48,677 nt of DNA from Mycoavidus cysteinexigens (GTDB taxonomy: Bacteria > Pseudomonadota > Gammaproteobacteria > Burkholderiales > Burkholderiaceae), in NCBI GenBank assembly GCA_031963365.1, contig JASSUF010000001.1, positions 1 to 48,677 of the forward strand, written 5' to 3'. The notes beneath the pieces were generated by a model. It was given only the letters and a program-made list of their open reading frames with translations, made no database searches and was not told the origin of the DNA. This document shows, in pieces, positions 2,362-36,090 of the stretch. A program made the translations under genes and the position numbers. The first letter of the stretch is position 1. Every line of letters starts with the position of its first letter.

Positions 2362-3684
2362 ATGGATTATTCCATGCACCTAACTGATATAGCAGCACGC
2401 AATGCTAAGCCCAAAGACAAGCGTTACAAACTCGCTGATAGTGGAGGATTATTTCTAGAAGTGCTCCCCGCTGGCGGGAAATATTGGCGCATGAAATACC
2501 GGAGCGATGGCAAGGAAAATTGCCTAGCGTTAGGCGTCTACCCTAAAGTAACACTTGCTCAGGCTCGCGCAGCACGCGACGCTGCAAAAAAGCAAATAAC
2601 TGATGGCGTAAATCCTGCCCATGAAAGAAAAAAGAAAAAATATCAAGCTTCTGTGAAAAAGGCACATTCTTTTAAAGCCATTGCAGAAGAATGGCTAGAA
2701 AAGCGCGAAGATGACTGGTCTAAAGATTACGCTCAAAAAAAGCGAGACATATTAGAAAAAGATATTTTTCCTTCACTTGGTCCATTCTCTATCGCAGAAA
2801 TTACGGCAGCAGAACTATTACCCGTAATACAAAAAATTGAGAAGCGAGATGCATTAGAAACTTCGCGCAAAGCTTTACAAACTTGCGGACAAATTTTCCG
2901 GTATGCCATAGCAACCGGTCGAGCCAAGCGTAATCCATCGCCAGACTTACGGGGCGCACTTAAAACTCGCTCAGTCAAACATATGGCACGCATTAAAGAA
3001 TCTAACTTTCCAGAGCTTTTGCACAAAATTTCGGAGTACGCAAATAGCCATGAATCAAAAGGAGAGCCATTGACGGAGCTAGCGCTTGATCTAATGACAC
3101 TGACCTTTGTGCGCACTACTGAGTTGCGGTTTGCAGAATGGAGTGAGATTGATTTTAAAAAGCAAGAATGGCGCATCCCTGCTGAAAAAATGAAGAAAGA
3201 CCGCGAGCATGTTGTACCCTTGAGTAAACAAACTCTTACTATTTTGCAAAAATTACGCGCATTAACCGGTAAATATCAATGGCTTTTTCCAGGGGCACGA
3301 TCAACTAAAACGGTAATGAGTGAAAATACCATTCTGTATGCGTTATATCGCATGGGATACCATAGTCGAATGACTGGACATGGTTTTCGTGGGCTAGCGT
3401 CTACGATCCTGAATGAGCATGGTTTTGATAAAGATTGGGTCGAGCGGCAGTTGGCCCATGAGGATGAAGACGAAACACGGGCTGCGTACAATCATGCTGA
3501 ATATTTACCACAGCGCCGCTATATGATGCAGTGGTGGGCCGATTACCTGGATAGAAGAATGGCAGAAAACTATCCAGAGCACGGCAAAGAAAGGTTTATA
3601 GAGTGCGACCCTGATGTGGAAGCAAGGTTCATAGCCCCTCCTCCGCCCGTTGTTCCTCTGTTTGGTAATTGGCCGGGTCTTTAA
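2362..3684 (+). CDS. int: Tyrosine integrase, P4-like (DUF4102-type N-terminal arm-binding domain)
   Basis: N-terminus LTDIAARNAKPKDKRYKLADSGGLFLEVLPAGGKYWRMKY. Catalytic-domain motifs RTTELRFAEW, HGFRGLAST and AAYNHAEY. Adjacent to the tRNA att site. An alternative start at 2374 is possible. Confidence 0.9.
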   Translation: MDYSMHLTDIAARNAKPKDKRYKLADSGGLFLEVLPAGGKYWRMKYRSDGKENCLALGVYPKVTLAQARAARDAAKKQITDGVNPAHERKKKKYQASVKKAHSFKAIAEEWLEKREDDWSKDYAQKKRDILEKDIFPSLGPFSIAEITAAELLPVIQKIEKRDALETSRKALQTCGQIFRYAIATGRAKRNPSPDLRGALKTRSVKHMARIKESNFPELLHKISEYANSHESKGEPLTELALDLMTLTFVRTTELRFAEWSEIDFKKQEWRIPAEKMKKDREHVVPLSKQTLTILQKLRALTGKYQWLFPGARSTKTVMSENTILYALYRMGYHSRMTGHGFRGLASTILNEHGFDKDWVERQLAHEDEDETRAAYNHAEYLPQRRYMMQWWADYLDRRMAENYPEHGKERFIECDPDVEARFIAPPPPVVPLFGNWPGL

Positions 3685-13840: not shown

Positions 13841-14692
13841 ATGGTGTGCTTTCCGGTGTCTTTGTCTTTTTGCAATGGCTCTTCTTACCGTTCATTCGAT
13901 TACCCGAAGGAGCGTAAGTATCAGGAGATTTTTTCCAAACAGATTACCGCTGCTACGGGTTTTGAAAAATCTACTTCATTTACCAATCAAACGCGATGTA
14001 AGCCACCCTGCAAACGCAATATGACTAGGCAGTTGCTGGACCAATGGGGCATGGTGCAGCAAGATTTACAAGAAGATGCTTGGTTTCGCCAGTCAGGACT
14101 GGAAACCGCGCAGCAAGATTACCTGGCATGCTTACTCCAGGAATATAAACAAGCATGCGAGGATCTGCAGCCATCCGCAAAGGCCTGCTTATATGTTGAA
14201 GAACAGGATGCGATTTTAGACCGCCTCTGCCATTTAAATGCAGTCATGCAGGAAATAGAAATATTTTTTGAGGACTGTAGCCCTCGGGCCAAAGCACAGC
14301 AATCGGTCTTTTATCTGTCGGTGGCTATTATTGTAGCGGGGGTGTTTTCAGCAGTGATTATCCAAGCGGTGGGAATAGTCTGTACAGCAACGGCGCTGGT
14401 TTCTATTTTGTCGGCGTGTAGTCTAGCCTGTCTGCGGTTGGTGTATGTGCTCTATGAACGCGATATTGCCCACGCACATGCGCAGTGGGAAAGGCGTAGA
14501 AGGCAGTGGAAGACGCTGGAAAAATACTTTGCGCTATTTTGGTGGAAGGAAATAATAAGCGCGCTAGGCAAAGAACAGCTTAAAGGATCCATAAAAGCAA
14601 AACAGCGTGATACTACCATTCGTGCAGTAAGGCGCTATCCTCAAAAAATGCGTTTTACTTGGGTACGGTCTAAAAGAAGGCGGTCTGGATGA
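13841..14692 (+). CDS. Cargo membrane protein with bilobed hydrophobic domain
   Basis: SD gggag before the ATG at 13841. Hydrophobic hairpin VFYLSVAIIVAGVFSAVIIQAV-GIVCTATALVSILSACSLACLRLVYVLY. Basic C-terminus. Interrupts the scaffold-capsid junction. Confidence 0.55.
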   Translation: MVCFPVSLSFCNGSSYRSFDYPKERKYQEIFSKQITAATGFEKSTSFTNQTRCKPPCKRNMTRQLLDQWGMVQQDLQEDAWFRQSGLETAQQDYLACLLQEYKQACEDLQPSAKACLYVEEQDAILDRLCHLNAVMQEIEIFFEDCSPRAKAQQSVFYLSVAIIVAGVFSAVIIQAVGIVCTATALVSILSACSLACLRLVYVLYERDIAHAHAQWERRRRQWKTLEKYFALFWWKEIISALGKEQLKGSIKAKQRDTTIRAVRRYPQKMRFTWVRSKRRRSG

Positions 14693-14741: not shown

Positions 14742-16049
14742 TTATCCATCATCCATTTCTATATCTTGCATAACATATACAGACTCTAAATCTTTATTTC
14801 TGCGCTCCACGTCAGGAAGTGGCTGCGCGCCATTAAAACGGATATCCATAAAATTTATTTTGTGCGAGTATGGAATGGCCGCCATTAAATTATTAACGCC
14901 TACATCACCGATGTTATTATAACAAATATTTAATGAATATATTCCTTTTTCTAATATTTTCAATATGTATTGTATCCCTACATGGCTAATTCTATTGGTG
15001 TATAAATCTAATTTTTGAAAATTTTTATACAAATAGGATCCCTCCATTTTTTCTATGAGAATCATACTTAAACTTTTAACCCCTTCGTCCCCAATATCGT
15101 TTCCTCCAAAGGATAATACTTTAAGACTTATCGGTAAAATTCCTATCAATAGTTTTATATCTTCATCACGGATGCCAACGCCCTCCAATCGCAAATCAGA
15201 AATAGTTGATTGTGTAAAATTGGAAATAAAATCTTTTACCCAACCGGGTTGAATATCTCCAGAAGAACAAAAAGAAGGAGCAGAAAACATAGCGCTTCTA
15301 GTAAATTCAAAACTTGAAATCGTGTTTTTAATTTCAGGTCCAAGAGCTAACAAATTCTGCGCGATAAAATTGCTATATCTTAAAGAAAACTTCGTCTCTC
15401 TTATACTTCTACAGCTCTTAAGAAGCTGTATGATTCTATCAATAATAGAATTTTCAGCGGTATATATAAAACCTGCATCAAAATATAAACTTTCAAGATT
15501 TTGTTTGTTTTCCATCGCTTGTAGTGTTGTAAAAAATCGATGGATATCTACAGCGTGCAAAATAATATTACTATCCTCTATGTCATAATTACCCATCGAA
15601 CTAATCTTGATATGCACATGCTGTATATTTTCAATCACTTTTTCAATGTTATATTTAATTTCCTCCTCGGTTAATGTATTATTATTTCTTGTAATGGCAT
15701 CAATTTTTTCACCACTCCATTTTTCTTGGGCTTGACTCCATATAGATCGCGCGTACGTATCTGTTGTCGCAAGCAAACTACGTATCACTCCGCAGAATGG
15801 AGGGCTTATTAGCATCAATTCGATAAAATCTTTTGGAGTCGATAAAGAGTGCGATAAAAAATCGAATATTTGCAACGCTATTTCATTAGGTAGAGGAGGC
15901 AAAGCTTGGCGACTGTATTTTTCCAAAGAAAATTTTTGAGGTGCAGCCTGTGCTATTTCCTGTGATGGTTGGACTGGATTTTCAGAAGGAATATATTGAG
16001 TAGGGAAACATGGAGTGGAAACACGCGACACATTATTAGAGTTCATCAT
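14742..16049 (-). CDS. F-box + leucine-rich-repeat (RNI-type) eukaryotic-like protein, moron 1
   Basis: F-box motif LPPLPNEIALQIFDFLS...FIELMLISPPFCGVIRSLL. C-terminal LRRs LKVLSFGGNDIGDEGVKSLS, LDLYTNRISHVGIQYI, LNICYNNIGDVGVNNLMAAI. Antisense to the late operon and AT-rich. Confidence 0.8.
   Translation of the reverse strand: MMNSNNVSRVSTPCFPTQYIPSENPVQPSQEIAQAAPQKFSLEKYSRQALPPLPNEIALQIFDFLSHSLSTPKDFIELMLISPPFCGVIRSLLATTDTYARSIWSQAQEKWSGEKIDAITRNNNTLTEEEIKYNIEKVIENIQHVHIKISSMGNYDIEDSNIILHAVDIHRFFTTLQAMENKQNLESLYFDAGFIYTAENSIIDRIIQLLKSCRSIRETKFSLRYSNFIAQNLLALGPEIKNTISSFEFTRSAMFSAPSFCSSGDIQPGWVKDFISNFTQSTISDLRLEGVGIRDEDIKLLIGILPISLKVLSFGGNDIGDEGVKSLSMILIEKMEGSYLYKNFQKLDLYTNRISHVGIQYILKILEKGIYSLNICYNNIGDVGVNNLMAAIPYSHKINFMDIRFNGAQPLPDVERRNKDLESVYVMQDIEMDDG
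15762..15902 (-). other. F-box motif region of moron 1 protein (aa ~50-96)
   Basis: LPxEI..xIFxFL followed by a hydrophobic helix pair, matching the F-box consensus LPdEil..Il..L......l.lVsk.w..l. Confidence 0.7.
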
Positions 16050-22005: not shown

Positions 22006-23169
22006 TTAGTCCCACAAAAACTCAATGTCTGCGCCATGCTTATTTTTTATACCAGAAAATTTATGGCGTTCATTGTCTAAATGGCAGCCAGATAAACGCA
22101 CTGTCTCTAATGTTAAAAAATTTGATATAGCTCTTAAATCATCAGCTTTATAGCCAGACAAATGATTACCGGTTAAGTCTAGATATTGAACATCTATGTT
22201 CTGCAACTTTTTAAAAATATTTTTTGCGCCATTACGGTCAATATTATTACAGCTTAATGATATGGTTTTTAGCTTTTCTGGCAGATTTTCAATTAGATGT
22301 AATGCCTCTCCATTTGCAAGACCAGCAAAATCTGCTGAGAACTCTTTAATATTGATATTTTTTAAATACTTTGAAAATGCATTTAACGCGGGTCTTTTAT
22401 TTTTATCTAAGCCTAAACTAAAAGAATCAATATTTTTACCTGATAATAATTGCAACAAAGTTGGAATATATTTTATGTCAAACTCATCACTGTCCACACA
22501 GAAGAATGGAATACTGCTCAATTCTGAATTTTTATGTAACACCCATAAAAAGTTGGATGTGAATTTATATTTATCATAATTGCATTCGCTAGACAAAGGC
22601 AAGTCCAATGTTTTTATATTGGTTTTTTTTAGCAAAGCATGAAATACCATATCCATTAGTTTATTACACTGATTCACAGTGGATGAGAAAAAAACAAAAT
22701 CGAAGCAAATATGCTGTACTTTATTAATAATAAAGTCAATGCCAAAATTGGTTTGATTATATGAGAATTCGGTTTTTTGTGTAATTCTAGAAGTCGCTCT
22801 TTCACACCAATCCATTTGATACTCAGGGCTTTGCGAGTCTATATCCGCGCTATCAACCAATAACTTTTCGAATTCAGAAAAAAATATCCTATGCTTAACT
22901 TTTATTGCCTCAAAAAATAATTCTTTATTAACCAACATAAGCACAGATAATTGCTGCATAGACTCTTTTGGTGAATATAATTTTGGAATGACATTTAAAA
23001 TCATGCTTACTAATTCTGTTGGCAAATCAGAAAAGGTAGCAGAAGGAGAAACCCTATTCTGGGAAGCGCTATCGTTTTCCAAGCATAGATCTTTAGAATG
23101 TATTTCATTGCCCTTGGAGTATGTAATATAAGAACGTTCTTGCAATTTATTTACATCTGATACATTCAC
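22006..23169 (-). CDS. F-box + LRR eukaryotic-like protein, moron 2
   Basis: GTG start with SD gaggaaat. F-box FSDLPTELVSMILNVIP...LSVLMLVNKELFFEAIK. C-terminal LRRs LKTISLSCNNIDRNGAKNIFKKL, YLDLTGNHLSG, LETVRLSGCHL. Antisense to the late operon and very AT-rich. Confidence 0.78.
   Translation of the reverse strand: MNVSDVNKLQERSYITYSKGNEIHSKDLCLENDSASQNRVSPSATFSDLPTELVSMILNVIPKLYSPKESMQQLSVLMLVNKELFFEAIKVKHRIFFSEFEKLLVDSADIDSQSPEYQMDWCERATSRITQKTEFSYNQTNFGIDFIINKVQHICFDFVFFSSTVNQCNKLMDMVFHALLKKTNIKTLDLPLSSECNYDKYKFTSNFLWVLHKNSELSSIPFFCVDSDEFDIKYIPTLLQLLSGKNIDSFSLGLDKNKRPALNAFSKYLKNINIKEFSADFAGLANGEALHLIENLPEKLKTISLSCNNIDRNGAKNIFKKLQNIDVQYLDLTGNHLSGYKADDLRAISNFLTLETVRLSGCHLDNERHKFSGIKNKHGADIEFLWD
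22894..23034 (-). other. F-box motif region of moron 2 protein (aa ~46-92)
   Basis: LPtELv.mIL followed by L.vLmLVnKelf..i, matching the F-box consensus. Confidence 0.65.
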
Positions 23170-28197: not shown

Positions 28198-28629
28198 ATG
28201 ATGGAGATCTTGAATTATCCCCGCTTAAGGGAAGAGCTCATACGTGATGAAGGGGTTCGATTTAAGCCTTACCGCGATAGTAGAGGGTATCTCACGATCG
28301 GCACAGGCCGTAATCTGGATGCGATCGGTATCAGTCAGCAGGAAAACGATCTAATGCTCGATAACGATATTCAGCGCGCCGCGCATGATTTAGATCAGCA
28401 TTGCCCGTGGTGGCGCACACTGGATGCGGTACGGCAGCGTATCTTAATGAACTTGTGTTTTAATTTGGGTATTGCCAAACTATTGCAATTTACTCAAACC
28501 CTGCATGCTACCCAGCAAGGCGCTTATCCACAAGCTGCCATACATATGCTGGATTCTGCATGGGCGCGGCAAGTGAAAGAACGAGCATTACGGCTAGCAC
28601 ATGGCATGCGCTCTGGAGTCCTAGGATGA
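28198..28629 (+). CDS. Endolysin, T4-lysozyme-like (GH24)
   Basis: LIRDEGVRFKPYRDSRGYLTIGTGRNL catalytic-region motif (E...D...T). 143 aa. Confidence 0.88.
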   Translation: MMEILNYPRLREELIRDEGVRFKPYRDSRGYLTIGTGRNLDAIGISQQENDLMLDNDIQRAAHDLDQHCPWWRTLDAVRQRILMNLCFNLGIAKLLQFTQTLHATQQGAYPQAAIHMLDSAWARQVKERALRLAHGMRSGVLG

Positions 28630-29135
28630 TAAGTGCACTATGGCGTTGGTTTAGTGGTTCACGCCTGGTAGGGGCTATGCTAGTAGGCATCGCTATAGGG
28701 GGATATACCGCTTGGCATATACAAGCCCTTCGTTACGAGGTGCGATTAGCCCGTCTACAAGCTAACATGCTTCACGCCCACCAAATACAAGATGACATTG
28801 CCACACACACAGAAACCACAACCCATGCCAATCTTAGCGCCATTGAAGATCAAGCACGCCGCCTCACCAGCCAGATTCCACGCTATATGGATTCAGACGA
28901 TACTCTGGCTCAGTCTGTGCCTCCTAGCTTCGTGTACCTGTACAACGCCGCTTTCACCGGCGCTACTCCCTCCACCTCCACACGCGCTGATGATCGATCC
29001 TCCCGCATTTCGTTTACTGAACTTGCCGATGCCCACATCACCAACGCCAGCATCTGTCAACAATGGCGAGAACAGGCATTAGCTTGGAGAACATTTTATC
29101 AACAGTTGCGTGACGCTCAAGAGGTGAGACGCTGA
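28626..29135 (+). CDS. i-spanin (Rz-like)
   Basis: ATGA overlap with the lysozyme. N-terminal TM LVGAMLVGIAIGGYTAW, then coiled coil. Contains an embedded +1 frame lipoprotein ORF. Confidence 0.7.
   Translation: MISALWRWFSGSRLVGAMLVGIAIGGYTAWHIQALRYEVRLARLQANMLHAHQIQDDIATHTETTTHANLSAIEDQARRLTSQIPRYMDSDDTLAQSVPPSFVYLYNAAFTGATPSTSTRADDRSSRISFTELADAHITNASICQQWREQALAWRTFYQQLRDAQEVRR
28825..29082 (+). CDS. o-spanin (Rz1-like lipoprotein) embedded in Rz +1 frame
   Basis: Lipobox LLAS|C (Cys codon at 28933). Mature part is Pro-rich (PLSPALLPPPPHALMIDPP). Lies entirely within the Rz gene. Start uncertain (28792 or 28825). Confidence 0.6.
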   Translation: MPILAPLKIKHAASPARFHAIWIQTILWLSLCLLASCTCTTPLSPALLPPPPHALMIDPPAFRLLNLPMPTSPTPASVNNGENRH

Positions 29136-29223: not shown

Positions 29224-30432
29224 TTAGGCCAGAGCATGTACATTTGCAGCTACGTAAGAGGACTCACTTGAATCCGTATAGCCGGATGCAGACATGTCAC
29301 TATCCCCTTCTGTAGACGAAGAGCCATGCTCGTCCAATGTGGGCATTACAAGAGCATTTTCCACAGGAGGCTGGGGAAGAGGAAGAGAAAGCGATTGTGA
29401 AGGGTCAAAATCTTGGTGTAGCGGCAACGTTGGATTCATCGGCACCCTATCTATAGAGTTCGTTAGAGAAGTGGACTGAGTACCTGCCTGAAGGAGTGCG
29501 GTATCGCTGCCATTTTCCTGATGACGGTTACTTTGACTGGTAACCTGGCTACTGCTATGACCTTGCTCAAGAGCATGTAATCGTTCAGAGAATGCATTAA
29601 GTTGAGCAAGCAAATTTTGGTTTATTAACTGCTGCTGTTGATTTGTTTGCCTTAATTCTGCAATTATTTCTCCACTTTGCTTGACTTCTATTCTTAATTG
29701 CGCATTAAGGCTCTTCAATTGTTTAACTTCATTTTCTAATTGTTTATTTTGATTTCTTAATTTTGTATTTGCATTTGTATTTCTTAATCGCGTATTTTTG
29801 TTTTGTAATATTCCGTGAGGCTCTTCTGAAGTTTTGATGCGATTATTTAATTTCGCTACTAACATCTCACTTCCAGCAGCAGTATTGGATGCGGTTTCAC
29901 TGACTACGGTTTGGGTTACGCTTCCCACCCCTGTTTGCGGTACTTCAAAAGGTGCAAGTGCAGTTTCTTCGATTTCAAGGCGGTATGGCATTTCGCTGCT
30001 TGGAACAGATAGAGTACTGTTGTTTTGATTTGCTGGTTCTATATCAGCATTTCCTTCGCCAATACTCACTGTTGGGGCAATAATAGCGCTAGCTGCTGTC
30101 GTATTGGATTCAGTAACATGGGCCGCAATGGCACCAATAGGAGGCGAGGTTTCTGGTCTTTGACGAGGTAAGGGTGCAGTTTGTTTGGCTTCAAATTTTT
30201 CTGACGCCATCGGGTTTGAGGTGAATGTTTTTTTACTATTCTGGTCTTCTATTGGGAGTTGTGCTATATAGGCAACGCTGGATCCACCAAGAAGGGTCGC
30301 GGCAACAGCAGCGCCGCCCGCTATCGTAGTGCTTGATCCAGAACCCGCAGCTGTGATAGCGGCGGCGGCCGAGGCGCTTCCCATTTGTGATAACACAGCA
30401 AATGCACCAATTCCAGCAAGAGGTAATGGCAT
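29224..30432 (-). CDS. Cargo protein: N-terminal Ala/Gly-rich double hydrophobic segment + Gln/Asn-rich coiled coil + Ser/Asp/Glu-rich tail
   Basis: SD ggag. LAGIGAFAVLSQMGSASAAAAITAAG and IAGGAAVAATLLGGSSVAYIA. Heptad region LRNQNKQLENEVKQLKSLNAQLRIEVKQ...LLAQLNAFSERLHALEQ. Confidence 0.6.
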   Translation of the reverse strand: MPLPLAGIGAFAVLSQMGSASAAAAITAAGSGSSTTIAGGAAVAATLLGGSSVAYIAQLPIEDQNSKKTFTSNPMASEKFEAKQTAPLPRQRPETSPPIGAIAAHVTESNTTAASAIIAPTVSIGEGNADIEPANQNNSTLSVPSSEMPYRLEIEETALAPFEVPQTGVGSVTQTVVSETASNTAAGSEMLVAKLNNRIKTSEEPHGILQNKNTRLRNTNANTKLRNQNKQLENEVKQLKSLNAQLRIEVKQSGEIIAELRQTNQQQQLINQNLLAQLNAFSERLHALEQGHSSSQVTSQSNRHQENGSDTALLQAGTQSTSLTNSIDRVPMNPTLPLHQDFDPSQSLSLPLPQPPVENALVMPTLDEHGSSSTEGDSDMSASGYTDSSESSYVAANVHALA

Positions 30433-30820
30433 AGATCACTCCAGTGAGTACGTGTTTATGAAATACTTTTCAGCTTTGCGTCGCTTTTAAGTTTTACAGA
30501 AAACCTCATTGGCTAGAACTACATCTGCATATGCTGCTTGGAATAGCATGTACCTAATAAAATAATGGCCAAGACAAAAAATATTAATACAGTGATCTAG
30601 CAGGGATAGGTTTAATCAATCTCTACTGCTTATCAGCGCAATGACGGATACCCAATAGAAGAAAAAATATCCAAAGTATTCAGATAAAGGTATTGCTCCT
30701 ACATCTACCTCGTTTGCAGGCGATAAAAGCGACTCCTGCGCAATACCATAAAGTTAAAAAACGATAAGCAGTATCCGGCCAAGACCTGTTAATAACCAGC
30801 TGGCTTTGTGGACCCAAACT

Positions 30821-32467
30821 ATGGACCGTATCACGCCTATTCCTTCTCCAACACTTCCTGCAACCGCAGCTAAACCCATCGCCTGCGAAGATGCCCTATG
30901 GGTTCCGCTCCCTGAGCAAGATGTAATAGAGCGCAATAGCCTTATTGCTATCGAAGCATGGCAAAAGCTATTTACTGATTTGCCGCTTGAAATAGTGTCA
31001 ATAATTTTTACAGAAACATTATTTGGTCTAACGCTCAATGAAATATTGAATATTGCAGAATATCAAAGAGGGAAACTCAAACCTGAGGCTTGGTCCGCAC
31101 TCTATAAAGCTAGTATTTTTTGTTTTGGCTCAATAGAAGAGCTATCAGAGTGGCTCTCTAATCCTAAACAGTTTCGGAATTTTGTCGAAGATGCGCAAAA
31201 ATACGGAGATAAAACCCTGCGGCAAATCTTTTATGGATTACAACTGCTGGAAAAAACAAAAGACTCGATAACCATTGAAGATTGTATGCGTGCTGGAATG
31301 ATAGATAGAGAGCGTATCTGTTCAGAAAATGCATTACCAAGTATTAGGGGCGAGCAAGATTTTTTATCGTGGCTCTGTGGAAAAAAAGCGCGTATAGTAA
31401 TTTGTTTACGTTGGCTTCCTGCGCAAACCCACAATCCTGAAGCTCGTAATCCTGATTTACTAGAAGAAGCAGTAAAACAAGGTAATTGCACGATAGTAAA
31501 GCAAGTATGCGCCTATATGAAAAAGCATAGGCTGCATGATGGGGCTGTCCTTCACCCATGTCGAAATGCATTATGGAGAGCGGTTATTGATAATGATGTC
31601 CCAATAGCACAATATTTATTCGACGAATTTCCAGATTTTCGGTTCACTCAAGGTCTTCTACAAATTTCTGCAGCAGAAGGATGTTTGCCTATGGTTCAAC
31701 TGCTTATAGAAAGAAAAATAGAAATTAATGAACTAGATGACTATCAAAAAACGGCCTTGCAGACAGTAATAGGTACCTTCTATCCATATCAGCTTTCTCC
31801 TTCATATTGGTTAGGATTTGATGAGGAGGGGCGTCAAAAAACCCTCGATCAATTAGATGTGATTATTTTTTTACTGCGTCAATATGTTGATAAAGGACTT
31901 GATTTTGATATTAACTGGGAATTGCAAGAACAAAATACTTTTTTGCATATGGCTTGTTATGTGCAAAACCCTGACTCTGCAGAATGGTTAGCACAGTTTA
32001 TATTGGAACAGCAAAAGGATAAAAACCTGTTCGATACTCAAAATGAAGATGGGAAAACGCCTTTCATGTGTGCATTAGAGGCTGATAATTACCCTATGTA
32101 TACTTTTTTGCAAGAACAGCAGGCGAAGCGAGTGTTAGGAACCGAGAGATTTCCCCTTCTTTCTCGAGAAGAGTTTCAAGCTTTACGAACAGCGTCGAAT
32201 AGAACATCCTCAACGCCACCTTCCACAAAGCCCGTCTTGCCTGCTTCCACTAGTATTCAAAACGACCCTCCTGTTGCTGTTCAGCCTCGCATTACAGCTT
32301 CCTATGCACCTTCTGCGCAAGAGATCTCTTGGCTACACACATGGGTGCAAGCCTTTGTTGATTTATCAAAATATCTGCTCACGATGGTGTTCTTTATTCC
32401 CCGTACTTTGTATGTCTTCTACCTCAATGTCATACAAGCTTGGATAAGTAGAGTGAGTGAAAGGTAA
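30821..32467 (+). CDS. F-box + ankyrin-repeat protein with C-terminal hydrophobic anchor
   Basis: F-box LFTDLPLEIVSIIFTE. ANK-like units (LLEEAVKQGNCTIVKQVC, ALWRAVIDNDVPIAQYL, LLQISAAEGCLPMVQLLIERKIEINELDDYQKTAL, NEDGKTPFMCALEADNYPMYTFL). C-terminal YLLTMVFFIPRTLYVFYLNVIQAWI. Confidence 0.75.
   Translation: MDRITPIPSPTLPATAAKPIACEDALWVPLPEQDVIERNSLIAIEAWQKLFTDLPLEIVSIIFTETLFGLTLNEILNIAEYQRGKLKPEAWSALYKASIFCFGSIEELSEWLSNPKQFRNFVEDAQKYGDKTLRQIFYGLQLLEKTKDSITIEDCMRAGMIDRERICSENALPSIRGEQDFLSWLCGKKARIVICLRWLPAQTHNPEARNPDLLEEAVKQGNCTIVKQVCAYMKKHRLHDGAVLHPCRNALWRAVIDNDVPIAQYLFDEFPDFRFTQGLLQISAAEGCLPMVQLLIERKIEINELDDYQKTALQTVIGTFYPYQLSPSYWLGFDEEGRQKTLDQLDVIIFLLRQYVDKGLDFDINWELQEQNTFLHMACYVQNPDSAEWLAQFILEQQKDKNLFDTQNEDGKTPFMCALEADNYPMYTFLQEQQAKRVLGTERFPLLSREEFQALRTASNRTSSTPPSTKPVLPASTSIQNDPPVAVQPRITASYAPSAQEISWLHTWVQAFVDLSKYLLTMVFFIPRTLYVFYLNVIQAWISRVSER
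30968..31105 (+). other. F-box motif region of the ANK protein (aa ~50-95)
   Basis: LPlEIvsiIF then LtLnEILniae. Weaker second half than in the two LRR proteins. Confidence 0.55.
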
Positions 32468-32544
32468 ACTCAACCATTGCGCAATATAGAAAGTGCAGCT
32501 AACCCAAAGAGAATAATGTTTTTATCTTTATAAATAAATATTTA

Positions 32545-32584
32545 CGAAAAAATAGCCCTTCTTCAAAAAAGAGCTATTTTTAGA
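32545..32584. terminator. Putative bidirectional terminator between convergent cargo genes
   Basis: aatagc (32551-32556) pairs with gctatt (32573-32578), plus inner tctt/aaga. A-run upstream and T-run downstream. Confidence 0.4.
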
Positions 32585-32631
32585 GGACATTAATTTACTT
32601 TTAGATTTATTGTACGGGAGAGAGAGGGGGA

Positions 32632-34074
32632 TTACCCTAATTTATTTATTAATTTTGCTATTAACTCATCTTTCTGAGCCAGTTGTTCTTTTAGTCGTGC
32701 ATTTTCCGCTATCAAATCAGCATCTGGGCTAGAAGAGGCAGAACGAGAGACGAGAAGTTGTTTGACTTCGTCCAGCTCTTTCTGCAATTGAGCAGCGCCA
32801 TTATTGAAGGCAGTAAAAATGTGATCTTGTTGCGCACCAATGGCCGACTTAATATCTTTAACTTGATCAGTGCTCATTTTTAATACACCTTTACCTTTTA
32901 ATACTTTGAGTAATGCGGGGAGAATCTTATCCCTTAATTGTATACGAATAAGATTCTCCTTTCCAAATTGTTCGTTTTTTTGTATCTCTCTAACAGGAGT
33001 GAAGGCTGAAGGGAGGTTGAGGAAGGCGACAATGTTTCCTCCTACCAAAGGAATAAAAGCAATAAGTGTTTTAAGCGTAGCAAACCAAGCGGCGAAAGTC
33101 GTCCATTTCTTGCGAGCTTCGTCTTCTTGCTTTTGGATAGTATCGAAGTACGCAGCTTGTGCTTGAGCCAATTTATCAAATGGCAGCCATAACTGATCAG
33201 TAGAAAGCCATACAGATTCCGTAGATTCTTCTAAAGAGTTAGAACTTGCCCCACTCTCGATGATAGAAGGGGTTATCAAACGGCCATTATGGTCCTCAGA
33301 GGGTAAAATTTCACTTATTTTACGAGGAAGGCGCACTCCTTGAGAAGGATGTAACAATAGCTCTGGGTATCGCCATAAAGAAGAAAGCGTCTCTTGGATT
33401 TCAATACGAGTACGATGTATAAGTGAAGCATCTGCGCAGAGCTGCTGCATAGATACATTACGCTGACCTTCATTTCTATTTGCAAGGATATGCTCTGTAA
33501 AGAGAGCATCTAACGAATCTTTGGCTTCTTCTAATGCTTTTTTGGCCGATTGACCGTAATTATTTAATGCATCGCTACCTGGTTTGATAAGCGCCATGCC
33601 CATCTGCGACGCAGATTGCGCTTTTGTCGCAGGCTTTTTATGGCCAAGGAGCCAATAGGCATGAGCACGTGATTTACTCAGTGATCCATCTGGTTCAAGC
33701 TGCGCAATACGGGTATCGATCTGCTGACTAGTTAAAGAATACAGCGTTTTTTCATACGCTGTTTTAGCCTTAGCCGCTTTATTTGAGCGATACTCTTCCA
33801 TATGACGTCTAGAAGAATGTAATAGCGCATTCTGCGCTTTCAGGGCTTTGAGAGACCTTTCTATTTGACTAGGGACAAAAGAACAAAATGGCTCACAGAG
33901 ATGCGCTAATGAAGTAGTAGGAATATGTTTGCCAAATAGTGGATGCCCTTTCTCAAATACGGGTAAATTTTCTTGGAATTCTGGAGGATCTTGTAGCGTG
34001 AGCTCAACACAGGCGGCCTGCGAGGAAAAGATCGCATGATCTATGGGTATTCCACCTGCGCCAGTAATTCGCAT
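32632..34074 (-). CDS. Cargo protein: large helical protein with internal hydrophobic hairpin and C-terminal coiled coil
   Basis: SD aggag, 480 aa. FAAWFATLKTLIAFIPLVGGNIVAFLNLPSAF. C-terminal LIAENARLKEQLAQKDELIAKLINKL. Confidence 0.6.
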   Translation of the reverse strand: MRITGAGGIPIDHAIFSSQAACVELTLQDPPEFQENLPVFEKGHPLFGKHIPTTSLAHLCEPFCSFVPSQIERSLKALKAQNALLHSSRRHMEEYRSNKAAKAKTAYEKTLYSLTSQQIDTRIAQLEPDGSLSKSRAHAYWLLGHKKPATKAQSASQMGMALIKPGSDALNNYGQSAKKALEEAKDSLDALFTEHILANRNEGQRNVSMQQLCADASLIHRTRIEIQETLSSLWRYPELLLHPSQGVRLPRKISEILPSEDHNGRLITPSIIESGASSNSLEESTESVWLSTDQLWLPFDKLAQAQAAYFDTIQKQEDEARKKWTTFAAWFATLKTLIAFIPLVGGNIVAFLNLPSAFTPVREIQKNEQFGKENLIRIQLRDKILPALLKVLKGKGVLKMSTDQVKDIKSAIGAQQDHIFTAFNNGAAQLQKELDEVKQLLVSRSASSSPDADLIAENARLKEQLAQKDELIAKLINKLG

Positions 34075-34221
34075 ACGTTCTCCTAATAAAGCACCTCCTC
34101 GGAGATACTATGATTAAGCATATGGAAGATTTTTTTCAGCAGGTATACGGCTAATACCTGGAAGATAAGATTTGGCAAAACGCTGAATACGCTTTAGTTT
34201 GGTAACAAAATACGATGCAAA

Positions 34222-34261
34222 AAGTCCCACATCCTCAAAAAAACTGAAAACATGGGACTTT
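34222..34261 (-). terminator. Possible terminator after the 321-aa cargo gene
   Basis: On the minus strand agtccca pairs with tgggact (long loop), followed by ttttg. Confidence 0.35.
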
Positions 34262-34286
34262 GGCGATCTAAAAAAAGCCATGTTAA

Positions 34287-35252
34287 TTAGGCTAGATCCT
34301 CAATAGATTTAAGCACTATTCGAGCCTGCTCTAAAGGGATGCCTGATTTGGTGAGAGCTTGCTTTAAAATCTCCTTGGAAACGTAATCAGCATGGTTAGC
34401 AGACTGCACTTGTTGGGCTGCCTTGACTTCCGCTAGCTCACGCTGCATGTTTTGCATTATTCGATTCATATTTTCAATTTTGTTATTAACACTCATATTG
34501 TTTCTCAACGATTCTTCTAATTGGGCTACAAATTGATTAAAAAGATTTTTGTGTTTATTAAGGTGAATACGCCGCTCACCTTCTATCTGCGCAATTAAAA
34601 ATCGATAAAACTGCACATATACCGAGATAAACACAAAGCATTTCCCAAACAGAGCCGCCATGCTTGCTGAAATCGCCAATGCGATACACAGTTGCGCGCA
34701 AAGCGGTGCAATAAGGGGCATTAAAATCAAGGTTGCTGTAAACAAAAATACAAAACGACTAGTTTTTTGTTCCTCCGATTCAACCTTAAATTCCTCGTAG
34801 CACTTGGCAAATTTCAGCATGACTTTATGCAAACACGCTAAATTGGCTTCAATTTGGCTGCTTTCTTCAGGTGATAAAGCAATTTCCTCCGTAGTTACTA
34901 ATCCATCAGGCAAGGGAGGCATCTCTGATTGAATGCTGATGCCTTTTTCTACCCACTGCATAAGCGGCTGACAGGCTTTAGCGAAGTTAGAAAGCACGGC
35001 TGCGAACTTGGCCTCCTCCACTTCTGATAAACCTCGGCCGCAATACCAGTTATCTTCCTTCAATACAGTCTTTATGCACGTCCATTGCTCTGAAACTTGT
35101 TCATACAAACTGCACTCTGGTTCGATAATTTCTGGATCGATAAAGCCGCATTCAGATTGGCTTTTACTTTCAGTAACAGCGGGGCTGGGAAAAAAAGGAA
35201 TGTTGAATGTTGAGATGCCTCTTGCCTGCAAAGTGTGCAGGAAGGAAGACAT
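34287..35252 (-). CDS. Cargo protein with central bilobed hydrophobic domain and C-terminal coiled coil
   Basis: SD gggagg. FVFLFTATLILMPLIAPLCAQL-CIALAISASMAALFGKCFVFISVYV, then LEESLRNNMSVNNKIENMNRIMQNMQRELAEVKAAQ. Confidence 0.6.
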   Translation of the reverse strand: MSSFLHTLQARGISTFNIPFFPSPAVTESKSQSECGFIDPEIIEPECSLYEQVSEQWTCIKTVLKEDNWYCGRGLSEVEEAKFAAVLSNFAKACQPLMQWVEKGISIQSEMPPLPDGLVTTEEIALSPEESSQIEANLACLHKVMLKFAKCYEEFKVESEEQKTSRFVFLFTATLILMPLIAPLCAQLCIALAISASMAALFGKCFVFISVYVQFYRFLIAQIEGERRIHLNKHKNLFNQFVAQLEESLRNNMSVNNKIENMNRIMQNMQRELAEVKAAQQVQSANHADYVSKEILKQALTKSGIPLEQARIVLKSIEDLA

Positions 35253-36074: not shown

Positions 36075-36090
36075 TCTTCCGGGTACCAAA
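36075..36090. repeat. attR core (tRNA-Leu 3' fragment)
   Basis: Exact copy of 2185-2200. Confidence 0.85.

Follow-up and report, generated by a model that had tools for sequence, protein, structure and literature searches.

Organization of the locus

The stretch of DNA analyzed here (the window: 48,677 nucleotides of Mycoavidus cysteinexigens, contig JASSUF010000001.1 of assembly GCA_031963365.1) contains a prophage that carries, next to its right end, a gene for a 548-residue ankyrin-repeat protein, which is the subject of this report. The prophage is ~33.9 kb in size and integrated in tRNA-Leu(CAG). Because an exact 16-bp attachment (att) repeat is found at both ends (chance expectation for such 16-mers in the att comparison ~8e-4), the prophage spans ~2185–36090 with the ankyrin gene inside it; the gene is phage-borne, which confirms what a preliminary description of the locus had claimed. 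Besides the integrase and lysis genes (Table 1), the prophage encodes a CI-like repressor, replication genes, terminase, portal, major head protein, tail fiber, tail-fiber assembly proteins, and an ejection-type protein. Sheath, tube, and tape-measure genes were not detected in the prophage, and none of 50,697 phage records matched the phage region in a megablast search. The ankyrin gene sits in a four-gene block (29224–35252, strand order −,+,−,−) that adjoins attR, and the GC content of this block (~0.38–0.45) and of the inserts (0.37–0.41) compares with ~0.50–0.52 for the phage core.

The open reading frame (ORF; 30806..32467, +) is intact and opens at TTG; the ATG at 30821 is the start common to all homologues (MDRI.PIPS), which gives the 548 residues used throughout. 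From N- to C-terminus the protein consists of a disordered segment, a ~57-residue module with an LPxEI helix (module A), a ~105-residue helical module (module B), the ankyrin-repeat (ANK) domain, a Ser/Thr/Pro-rich linker, and a proline-kinked hydrophobic C-terminal helix. A Sec signal peptide is ruled out by the lack of an N-terminal hydrophobic region, and the first 39 residues are a possible candidate for a secretion signal. The ratio of nonsynonymous to synonymous substitution rates (dN/dS) against the homologues on contigs L001 and L002 is 0.36–0.43 with all ORFs intact, which points to moderate purifying selection on the family; intact ORFs and a dN/dS below 0.5 rule out a pseudogene.

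Table 1. Features of the ankyrin-repeat gene and of the surrounding prophage; positions are those of the window (aa, amino acids; AF2, AlphaFold2; pLDDT, predicted local distance difference test; LRR, leucine-rich repeat)
Feature	Position	Strand	Remarks
Whole ankyrin-repeat gene	30821..32467	+	548 aa + stop; Mycoavidus-restricted ankyrin-repeat protein family
Pro/Thr/Ser/Ala-rich N-terminus, aa 1-39	30821..30937	+	pLDDT <35 (AF2)
Module A, F-box-like, aa 40-97	30938..31111	+	once per protein; LPxE[IL]xxx[IL][FL] ... AWxxLYK; hhalign, domain dissection
Module B, conserved helical domain, aa 98-204	31112..31432	+	DAQxYGxKT..Q, CLRWxPAQ; without known fold match
Ankyrin-repeat domain, aa 205-440	31433..32140	+	~5-6 units + insertion; Pfam, AF2, Foldseek
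One helix, then disordered Ser/Thr/Pro-rich linker, aa 441-498	32141..32314	+	AF2, composition
Conserved C-terminal helix, aa 499-548	32315..32464	+	hydrophobic aromatic-rich core (nt 32372-32446) split by conserved I-P-[R/H]; candidate membrane-association element
attL core, TCTTCCGGGTACCAAA	2185..2200	+	3' end of tRNA-Leu(CAG), 2114-2198
Tyrosine integrase	2362-3684
F-box-like motif (LPPLPNEIALQIFDFL) + ribonuclease-inhibitor-type LRRs	14742..16049	-	low-GC insert in structural module
F-box-like motif (FSDLPTELVSMILNVIP ... LMLVNKELF) + LRRs	22006..23169	-	second low-GC insert
Endolysin + spanin-like protein	28198-29135		prophage lysis genes
Cassette neighbor 1, 402 aa	29224..30432	-	low GC; 37-39% identical to same-position gene beside ankyrin gene in L001/L002
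Cassette neighbor 3, 480 aa	32632..34074	-	coiled coil + hydrophobic 'IAFIPLVGG'; only marginal similarity to L001 positional equivalent
Cassette neighbor 4, 321 aa	34287..35252	-	~50-aa two-lobed hydrophobic region + coiled coil; paralogue of 13841-14692 (+)
attR core	36075..36090	+	exact 16-bp repeat of attL, just before pcnB-folK-panB

Ankyrin domain and linker

The ankyrin repeats are firmly supported. Five Pfam families exceed their gathering scores between about residues 235 and 435 (Ank_2, 4.4e-14; Ank_4, 7.1e-13; and Ank_3, Ank_5, and Ank), and the full-length AF2 model, built from seven sequences, is confident for residues 210–440 alone (pLDDT 65–90), with the N-terminal 210 residues below 50. 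A Foldseek search of the PDB with the model of this region returned 110 matches at E ≤ 1e-3, and the best 50 of the 110 are nearly all ANK proteins or designed ankyrin-repeat proteins (DARPins). The region comprises ~5–6 helix pairs with an atypical insertion at residues 320–358, so that the "at least four" units counted previously were a reasonable estimate. The Ser/Thr/Pro-rich linker described at the same time is likewise borne out: these residues make up 46% of positions 451–498, against 17% of the whole protein, and a pLDDT below 50 predicts the linker to be disordered. The stretch is deleted in two paralogues (P0006 and P0007).

N-terminal module and its resemblance to an F-box

Residues 50–65 (nt 30968–31015) form the F-box-like motif LFTDLPLEIVSIIFTE. 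The helix-1 signature L-P-x-E-[IL]-x-x-x-[IL]-[FL] is kept in the family, with E57 invariant and L54 nearly so across 14 members, only one of which (P0009) yields a Pfam F-box-like match at E = 0.0064 (16.7 bits vs. a cut-off of 24.3, profile positions 2–16 of 47). The sole PDB match of a profile made from the close family is the F-box of yeast Cdc4, in register, at E = 1.6. Aligned by hhalign to an F-box reference, the family profile reaches a probability of 50% (P = 1.6e-4) over ~17–25 columns, which cover LPxEIxxxIF, a 4-residue insertion, and the first part of helix 2; the real score of 23.7 is not attained by any of 300 column shuffles (shuffle mean 9.0, maximum 18.5).

When the N-domain is modeled alone from 11 diverse sequences, AF2 gives a confident structure (pLDDT 83, predicted template modeling score 0.79), in which module A has helices at residues 56–66, 72–79, and 90–102, with a small hairpin insertion before the third, which begins with the invariant Trp91. 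Domain dissection located a second copy of positions 58–158 of the family's hidden Markov model (HMM), together with ANK repeats and without positions 1–57, in P0010 and P0012. Because these second copies lack positions 1–57, module A is separable and present once per protein, and it is about the size of an F-box. Module B has no match to a known fold; in the same two proteins it occurs twice, each time with an ANK block.

Several results weigh against an F-box assignment. Pfam reports no F-box for the protein or for its 69-residue motif segment at a setting of E ≤ 10, at which the HMMER filters drop most matches above E ~0.1. The broad 12-sequence family profile retrieves no F-box protein from the PDB. 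The hhalign match ends before F-box helix 3, and of the eight sequences in its reference alignment two (FBXW7 and FBXO44) are verified against PDB output and six are unverified; with the two verified sequences alone P rises to 0.0044, and 0 of 200 shuffles reach the score. Given this partly unverified reference, we treat the match as a lead. Foldseek of the N-domain model against the PDB finds nothing better than E = 1.6 and no F-box among the best 50 matches, a 45-residue substructure being a weak target for this method, and against BFVD it gives no significant match, the best being an anecdotal one to a Pandoravirus "F-box incomplete domain" protein (E = 1.6).

Taken at the family level, the resemblance of module A to F-box helix 1 appears real and beyond chance, while membership of the F-box family is not established for the ankyrin-repeat protein. 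That module A works as an F-box, docking to Skp1, is plausible, at clearly less than an even chance. Of the F-box-like motif and ankyrin units proposed in the preliminary description, the motif is present and the ANK profiles pass their gathering scores, but no Pfam F-box accompanies them.

C-terminal hydrophobic helix

The hydrophobic end YLLTMVFFIPRTLYVFYLNVIQAWI (aa 518–542) lies within the C-terminal 50 residues, which are kept family-wide, including in the distant members P0013 (HFFAILTFIPLFFYEICRNW), P0014 (LFSTLILFPHTCYIFCWNWINYCIAVL), and P0016 (LYTCLFSILTFIPLSLYWIFYNWIPSIAASF), with a central Pro in all. AF2 draws a single long helix over residues 499–547 (pLDDT 50–67), with no evident place in the ANK domain. 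The core is broken by the conserved Pro and then Arg, a position held by Arg or His in the family.

The preliminary description had taken this end to be a transmembrane tail anchor. The segment is indeed there and conserved, but it lacks the properties of a tail anchor, in which some 18 uncharged residues or more would follow each other without a break no further than ~30 residues from the C-terminus, and the picture across the family is mixed. In the protein studied here no uncharged run exceeds 15 residues, the Kyte–Doolittle (KD) mean over 19 residues peaks at 1.56, the summed Hessa scale is +4.4 kcal/mol, and Pro-Arg falls in mid-tail; in P0005, P0006, and P0007 the Hessa sums are +7.6 to +9.7, with 4–5 charged or His residues in the core. 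All of these values count against a transmembrane tail anchor. As an internal positive control, the product of 34287–35252 scores 2.34 (KD) and +0.27 (Hessa). The tails of the closest homologues reach KD-19 maxima of 1.85–1.88, and those of the distant members P0014 and P0016 contain 28–36 uncharged residues; P0016, with a run of 36 and a Hessa sum of +1.3, is the only member whose tail looks competent for insertion.

A classical tail anchor is therefore unlikely for the ankyrin-repeat protein, as judged from its residues. A role in membrane association, either as a hairpin kinked at the proline or as an aromatic-rich helix at the interface, would be reasonable for the tail, and partner binding or a secretion signal is also possible; association with a membrane through this tail, by whatever geometry, we rate as plausible and just short of an even chance. 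Lipidation of the CaaX type is ruled out, since the protein ends in ...QAWISRVSER with no Cys at position −4 or elsewhere near the end, and the stated absence of a CaaX box is thus correct.

A "FIP" core like that of the tail (VFFIPRTLY) also occurs in cassette neighbor 3 (IAFIPLVGG) and in L002 10853–12487 (−) (LGFIPFLPLAVG), with C-terminal coiled coils following in both neighbors. This common core may be a membrane-insertion motif or a coincidence.

Distribution of the family

Among 5.8 billion protein clusters the protein has six homologues, at 35–68% identity. An exhaustive profile search with the N-terminal 178 residues against 1.84 billion representatives gave 10 clusters, and a further homologue search with the N-domain alignment added one fragment only; scanning genome contigs with the protein alone as query gave no match. 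All traceable members come from M. cysteinexigens metagenome-assembled genomes (isolates BRE-AD058 and BRE-REB-025A) or from a sister assembly in that series, except for a JGI fragment and a Logan read-set contig. Mycoavidus lives as an obligate endohyphal bacterium in Mortierella fungi, and prophages account for 7–11.5% of its genome (PMC5877345).

On L001 and L002 the same cassette layout (~490 aa, −; ankyrin protein, +; 514–544 aa, −; 323 aa, −) is found inserted between gpV (baseplate) and gpS (tail completion) of a P2-like myovirus prophage. The fourth protein there has the same architecture as its counterpart in the window and no detectable sequence similarity to it. The layout thus occurs in two unrelated phage types, and further family members lie beside MobI, in a TraV/WD40/LRR island, or at a plain chromosomal site. 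The family is multi-copy, mobile-element-associated, and lineage-restricted.

Copies also vary in their build. P0010 (859 aa), P0012 (883 aa), and P0016 (1213 aa) have the unit of module B and ANK repeats doubled or tripled behind one F-box-like module, and P0016 includes a near-perfect internal repeat of ~190 residues. L001 10001–13378 holds two tandem ankyrin genes (545 and 552 aa) in one P2-like prophage that share mosaic similarity with the L002 copy; in the tail region, the second of them shows no synonymous difference from L002. This mosaic similarity suggests recombination among ankyrin paralogues.

Other Mycoavidus contigs that bear family members encode a 1902-residue NACHT + WD40 protein (L008 6153–11861, +) and a WD40 protein (L011 7440–8237, +). 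Such architectures, which are like those of fungal NOD-like receptors, could be host-derived genes or a result of contig mis-binning.

Leucine-rich-repeat inserts in the same prophage

Two further genes of the prophage open with an F-box-like LPxE[IL] motif and continue into eukaryote-type LRRs; both have a GC content of 0.37–0.39 and run on the opposite strand within the phage structural module. In the protein encoded at 14742–16049 the motif segment gives a sub-threshold Pfam F-box-like match (E = 0.0016) and an hhalign P of 2e-4, and its repeats have ribonuclease inhibitor as best PDB match (1e-6). No homologue of this protein was found among 5.8 billion proteins. F-box + LRR and F-box + ANK are the two classic architectures of Skp1–Cullin–F-box (SCF) adaptors and of their bacterial mimics.

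Proposed function and alternative explanations

We propose that the protein is cargo (a "moron") of a prophage in an endofungal member of the Burkholderiaceae: a eukaryote-directed ankyrin-repeat protein from a mobile-element-associated family, which would act in four steps. It would be exported into the fungal cytoplasm; its C-terminal element, shaped as an interfacial helix or a monotopic hairpin and not as a spanning anchor, would settle on a membrane of the host or on a symbiont-facing one; the ANK domain would bind a host target; and module A may serve as a divergent F-box-like adaptor that links this target to ubiquitination by Skp1/SCF. We put this reading, with its mechanism, at an even chance, and regard the part of it that makes the protein a host-directed ANK effector as probable. 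Since every relative stems from a Mycoavidus assembly, the eukaryotic host is likely to be a fungus of the Mortierella type and not an amoeba; a Legionella or amoeba context was rejected, the relatives being endofungal. With regard to export, type II, III, and IV secretion systems have been reported for Mycoavidus genomes (PMC5877345), and the 48,677-nt window itself holds no secretion system genes. A consensus scan of the sequence flanking the insert found 5 promoter-like sites vs. 6.0 expected and 0 terminator-like ones, which speaks against the proposal as far as such a scan goes.

The effector role and the F-box-like role of module A can be separated. A host-directed ankyrin effector whose N-terminal 165 residues form one lineage-specific all-alpha domain, engaged for example in target binding or chaperone docking and resembling an F-box in its LPxEI helix by chance or convergence, would agree with the single compact and confident AF2 model that lacks a PDB match, with Pfam and PDB sequence profiles below significance, and with a similarity confined to so few columns. 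Yet P0010 and P0012 show that module A can be separated from module B, no shuffle of the 300 reaches the hhalign score, the same motif opens two independent LRR proteins of this very prophage, and fusions of an F-box to LRRs or ANK repeats are the classic architectures; we consider this explanation rather unlikely, although it would leave the effector role intact. The opposite departure, an SCF recruiter of the AnkB kind with a true transmembrane anchor at its C-terminus, draws on a hydrophobic segment that lies ≤30 residues from the end between basic flanks, on the KD maxima of the closest homologues, on the long uncharged stretches of P0014 and P0016, and on a long AF2 helix standing apart from the ANK domain. 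The short uncharged run, central Pro-Arg, and low KD and unfavorable Hessa values of the protein itself, the still higher Hessa sums of P0005, P0006, and P0007 beside the near-zero control, an unproven F-box, and the lack of homology to AnkB make it improbable.

ANK proteins that act inside the bacterium are known from bacteria and phages, and phage accessory genes typically occupy positions like that of this gene, beside lysis genes and attR; the Bdellovibrio immunity protein Bd3460 is also among the Foldseek matches. A role inside the bacterium in anti-defense, superinfection exclusion, or lysis timing, in which the tail would sit in the inner membrane and the ANK repeats would bind a bacterial protein, is nevertheless very improbable in view of a family that is confined to obligate endofungal bacteria, found outside prophages as well, multi-copy per genome, low in GC, and co-located with eukaryote-type LRR proteins of the ribonuclease-inhibitor (RNI) kind, and in view of the absence of any PHROG family matching the protein. 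Returning to the proposed fungus-directed effector, its most far-reaching version would give Mycoavidus phages their own equivalent of the eukaryotic association module (EAM) known from phage WO, made of divergent F-box adaptors (one fused to ANK repeats and two to LRRs), with the ANK family sitting on a fungal membrane or on lipid droplets by its Pro-kinked hairpin and recruiting the fungal SCF ligase there. Mortierella is oleaginous. We consider this version unlikely. If true, it would be the first phage-borne SCF-hijacking system aimed at a fungus, with an N-terminal domain fold that has no solved relative.

Relation to known systems

Phage WO of Wolbachia is an example of a bacteriophage with a eukaryote-like gene module. 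By analogy, its EAM is the nearest known concept for the present gene, which is not an AnkB homologue. The WO module includes ANK proteins and PRANC, a domain related to the F-box, and those who described it predicted the same for phages of other intimate symbionts (PMC5062602). In both cases eukaryote-like genes lie in a prophage of an obligate intracellular bacterium, apart from the structural core, and in the present prophage low-GC inserts and the region beside attR encode ANK and LRR proteins that open with an F-box-like motif. Unlike Wolbachia, however, the bacterium belongs to the Betaproteobacteria and lives in a fungus instead of an arthropod; homology to WO genes was not detected at the sequence level, further inserts are dispersed within the structural module, and the cassette is shared by two unrelated phage types. 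ANK repeats are also combined with an F-box-like SCF adaptor in the ANK-PRANC/F-box proteins of poxviruses and Orientia, with the F-box-like domain C-terminal to the repeats, whereas module A is N-terminal here and the C-terminus is a hydrophobic helix.

The preliminary description likened the architecture to that of Legionella pneumophila AnkB. This holds for the order of an F-box(-like) domain, ANK repeats, and a C-terminal membrane-targeting element (a candidate one in the present protein), but not for sequence: there is no homology to AnkB, homologues being found only in Mycoavidus assemblies and phmmer against the PDB finding generic ANK proteins only. AnkB has been described as a bona fide F-box protein (PMC2916131), and its anchor is swappable between strains, being either a farnesylated CaaX or a di-lysine motif (PMC2916131, PMC5506055). 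The present protein differs in being much larger and prophage-borne, with an extra 105-residue module, more ANK units, no CaaX, and an F-box that Pfam does not detect. Closer in taxonomy, the GALA/RipG proteins of Ralstonia solanacearum, also of the Burkholderiaceae, are F-box + LRR type III effectors (PMC2244805) and resemble the two LRR inserts at 14742–16049 and 22006–23169. The LRRs of the window are, in contrast, of the RNI type and not the GALA type, their F-box is sub-threshold, and the first of the two proteins is without any homologue.

The Mycoavidus prophage thus offers a concrete second setting, beside phage WO, for phage-borne eukaryote-like genes. Only transcription activator-like (TAL-like) effectors are known so far for host manipulation by endofungal bacteria (PMC11261895). 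If the ankyrin-repeat protein is translocated and engages Skp1, phages would be vehicles that spread host-manipulation genes among these bacteria. In the literature searched, no paper names Mycoavidus together with an F-box or describes the proteins studied here, and the few that combine it with ankyrin are, by title, on other topics.

Neighboring genes

Cassette neighbor 4 and the product of 13841–14692 (+) are paralogous orphans that are 22% identical (1.7e-7 by phmmer, with a database of small size), and a eukaryote-like gene adjoins each of them. The combination of hydrophobic region and coiled coil in neighbor 4 is reminiscent of chlamydial Inc-type membrane effectors.

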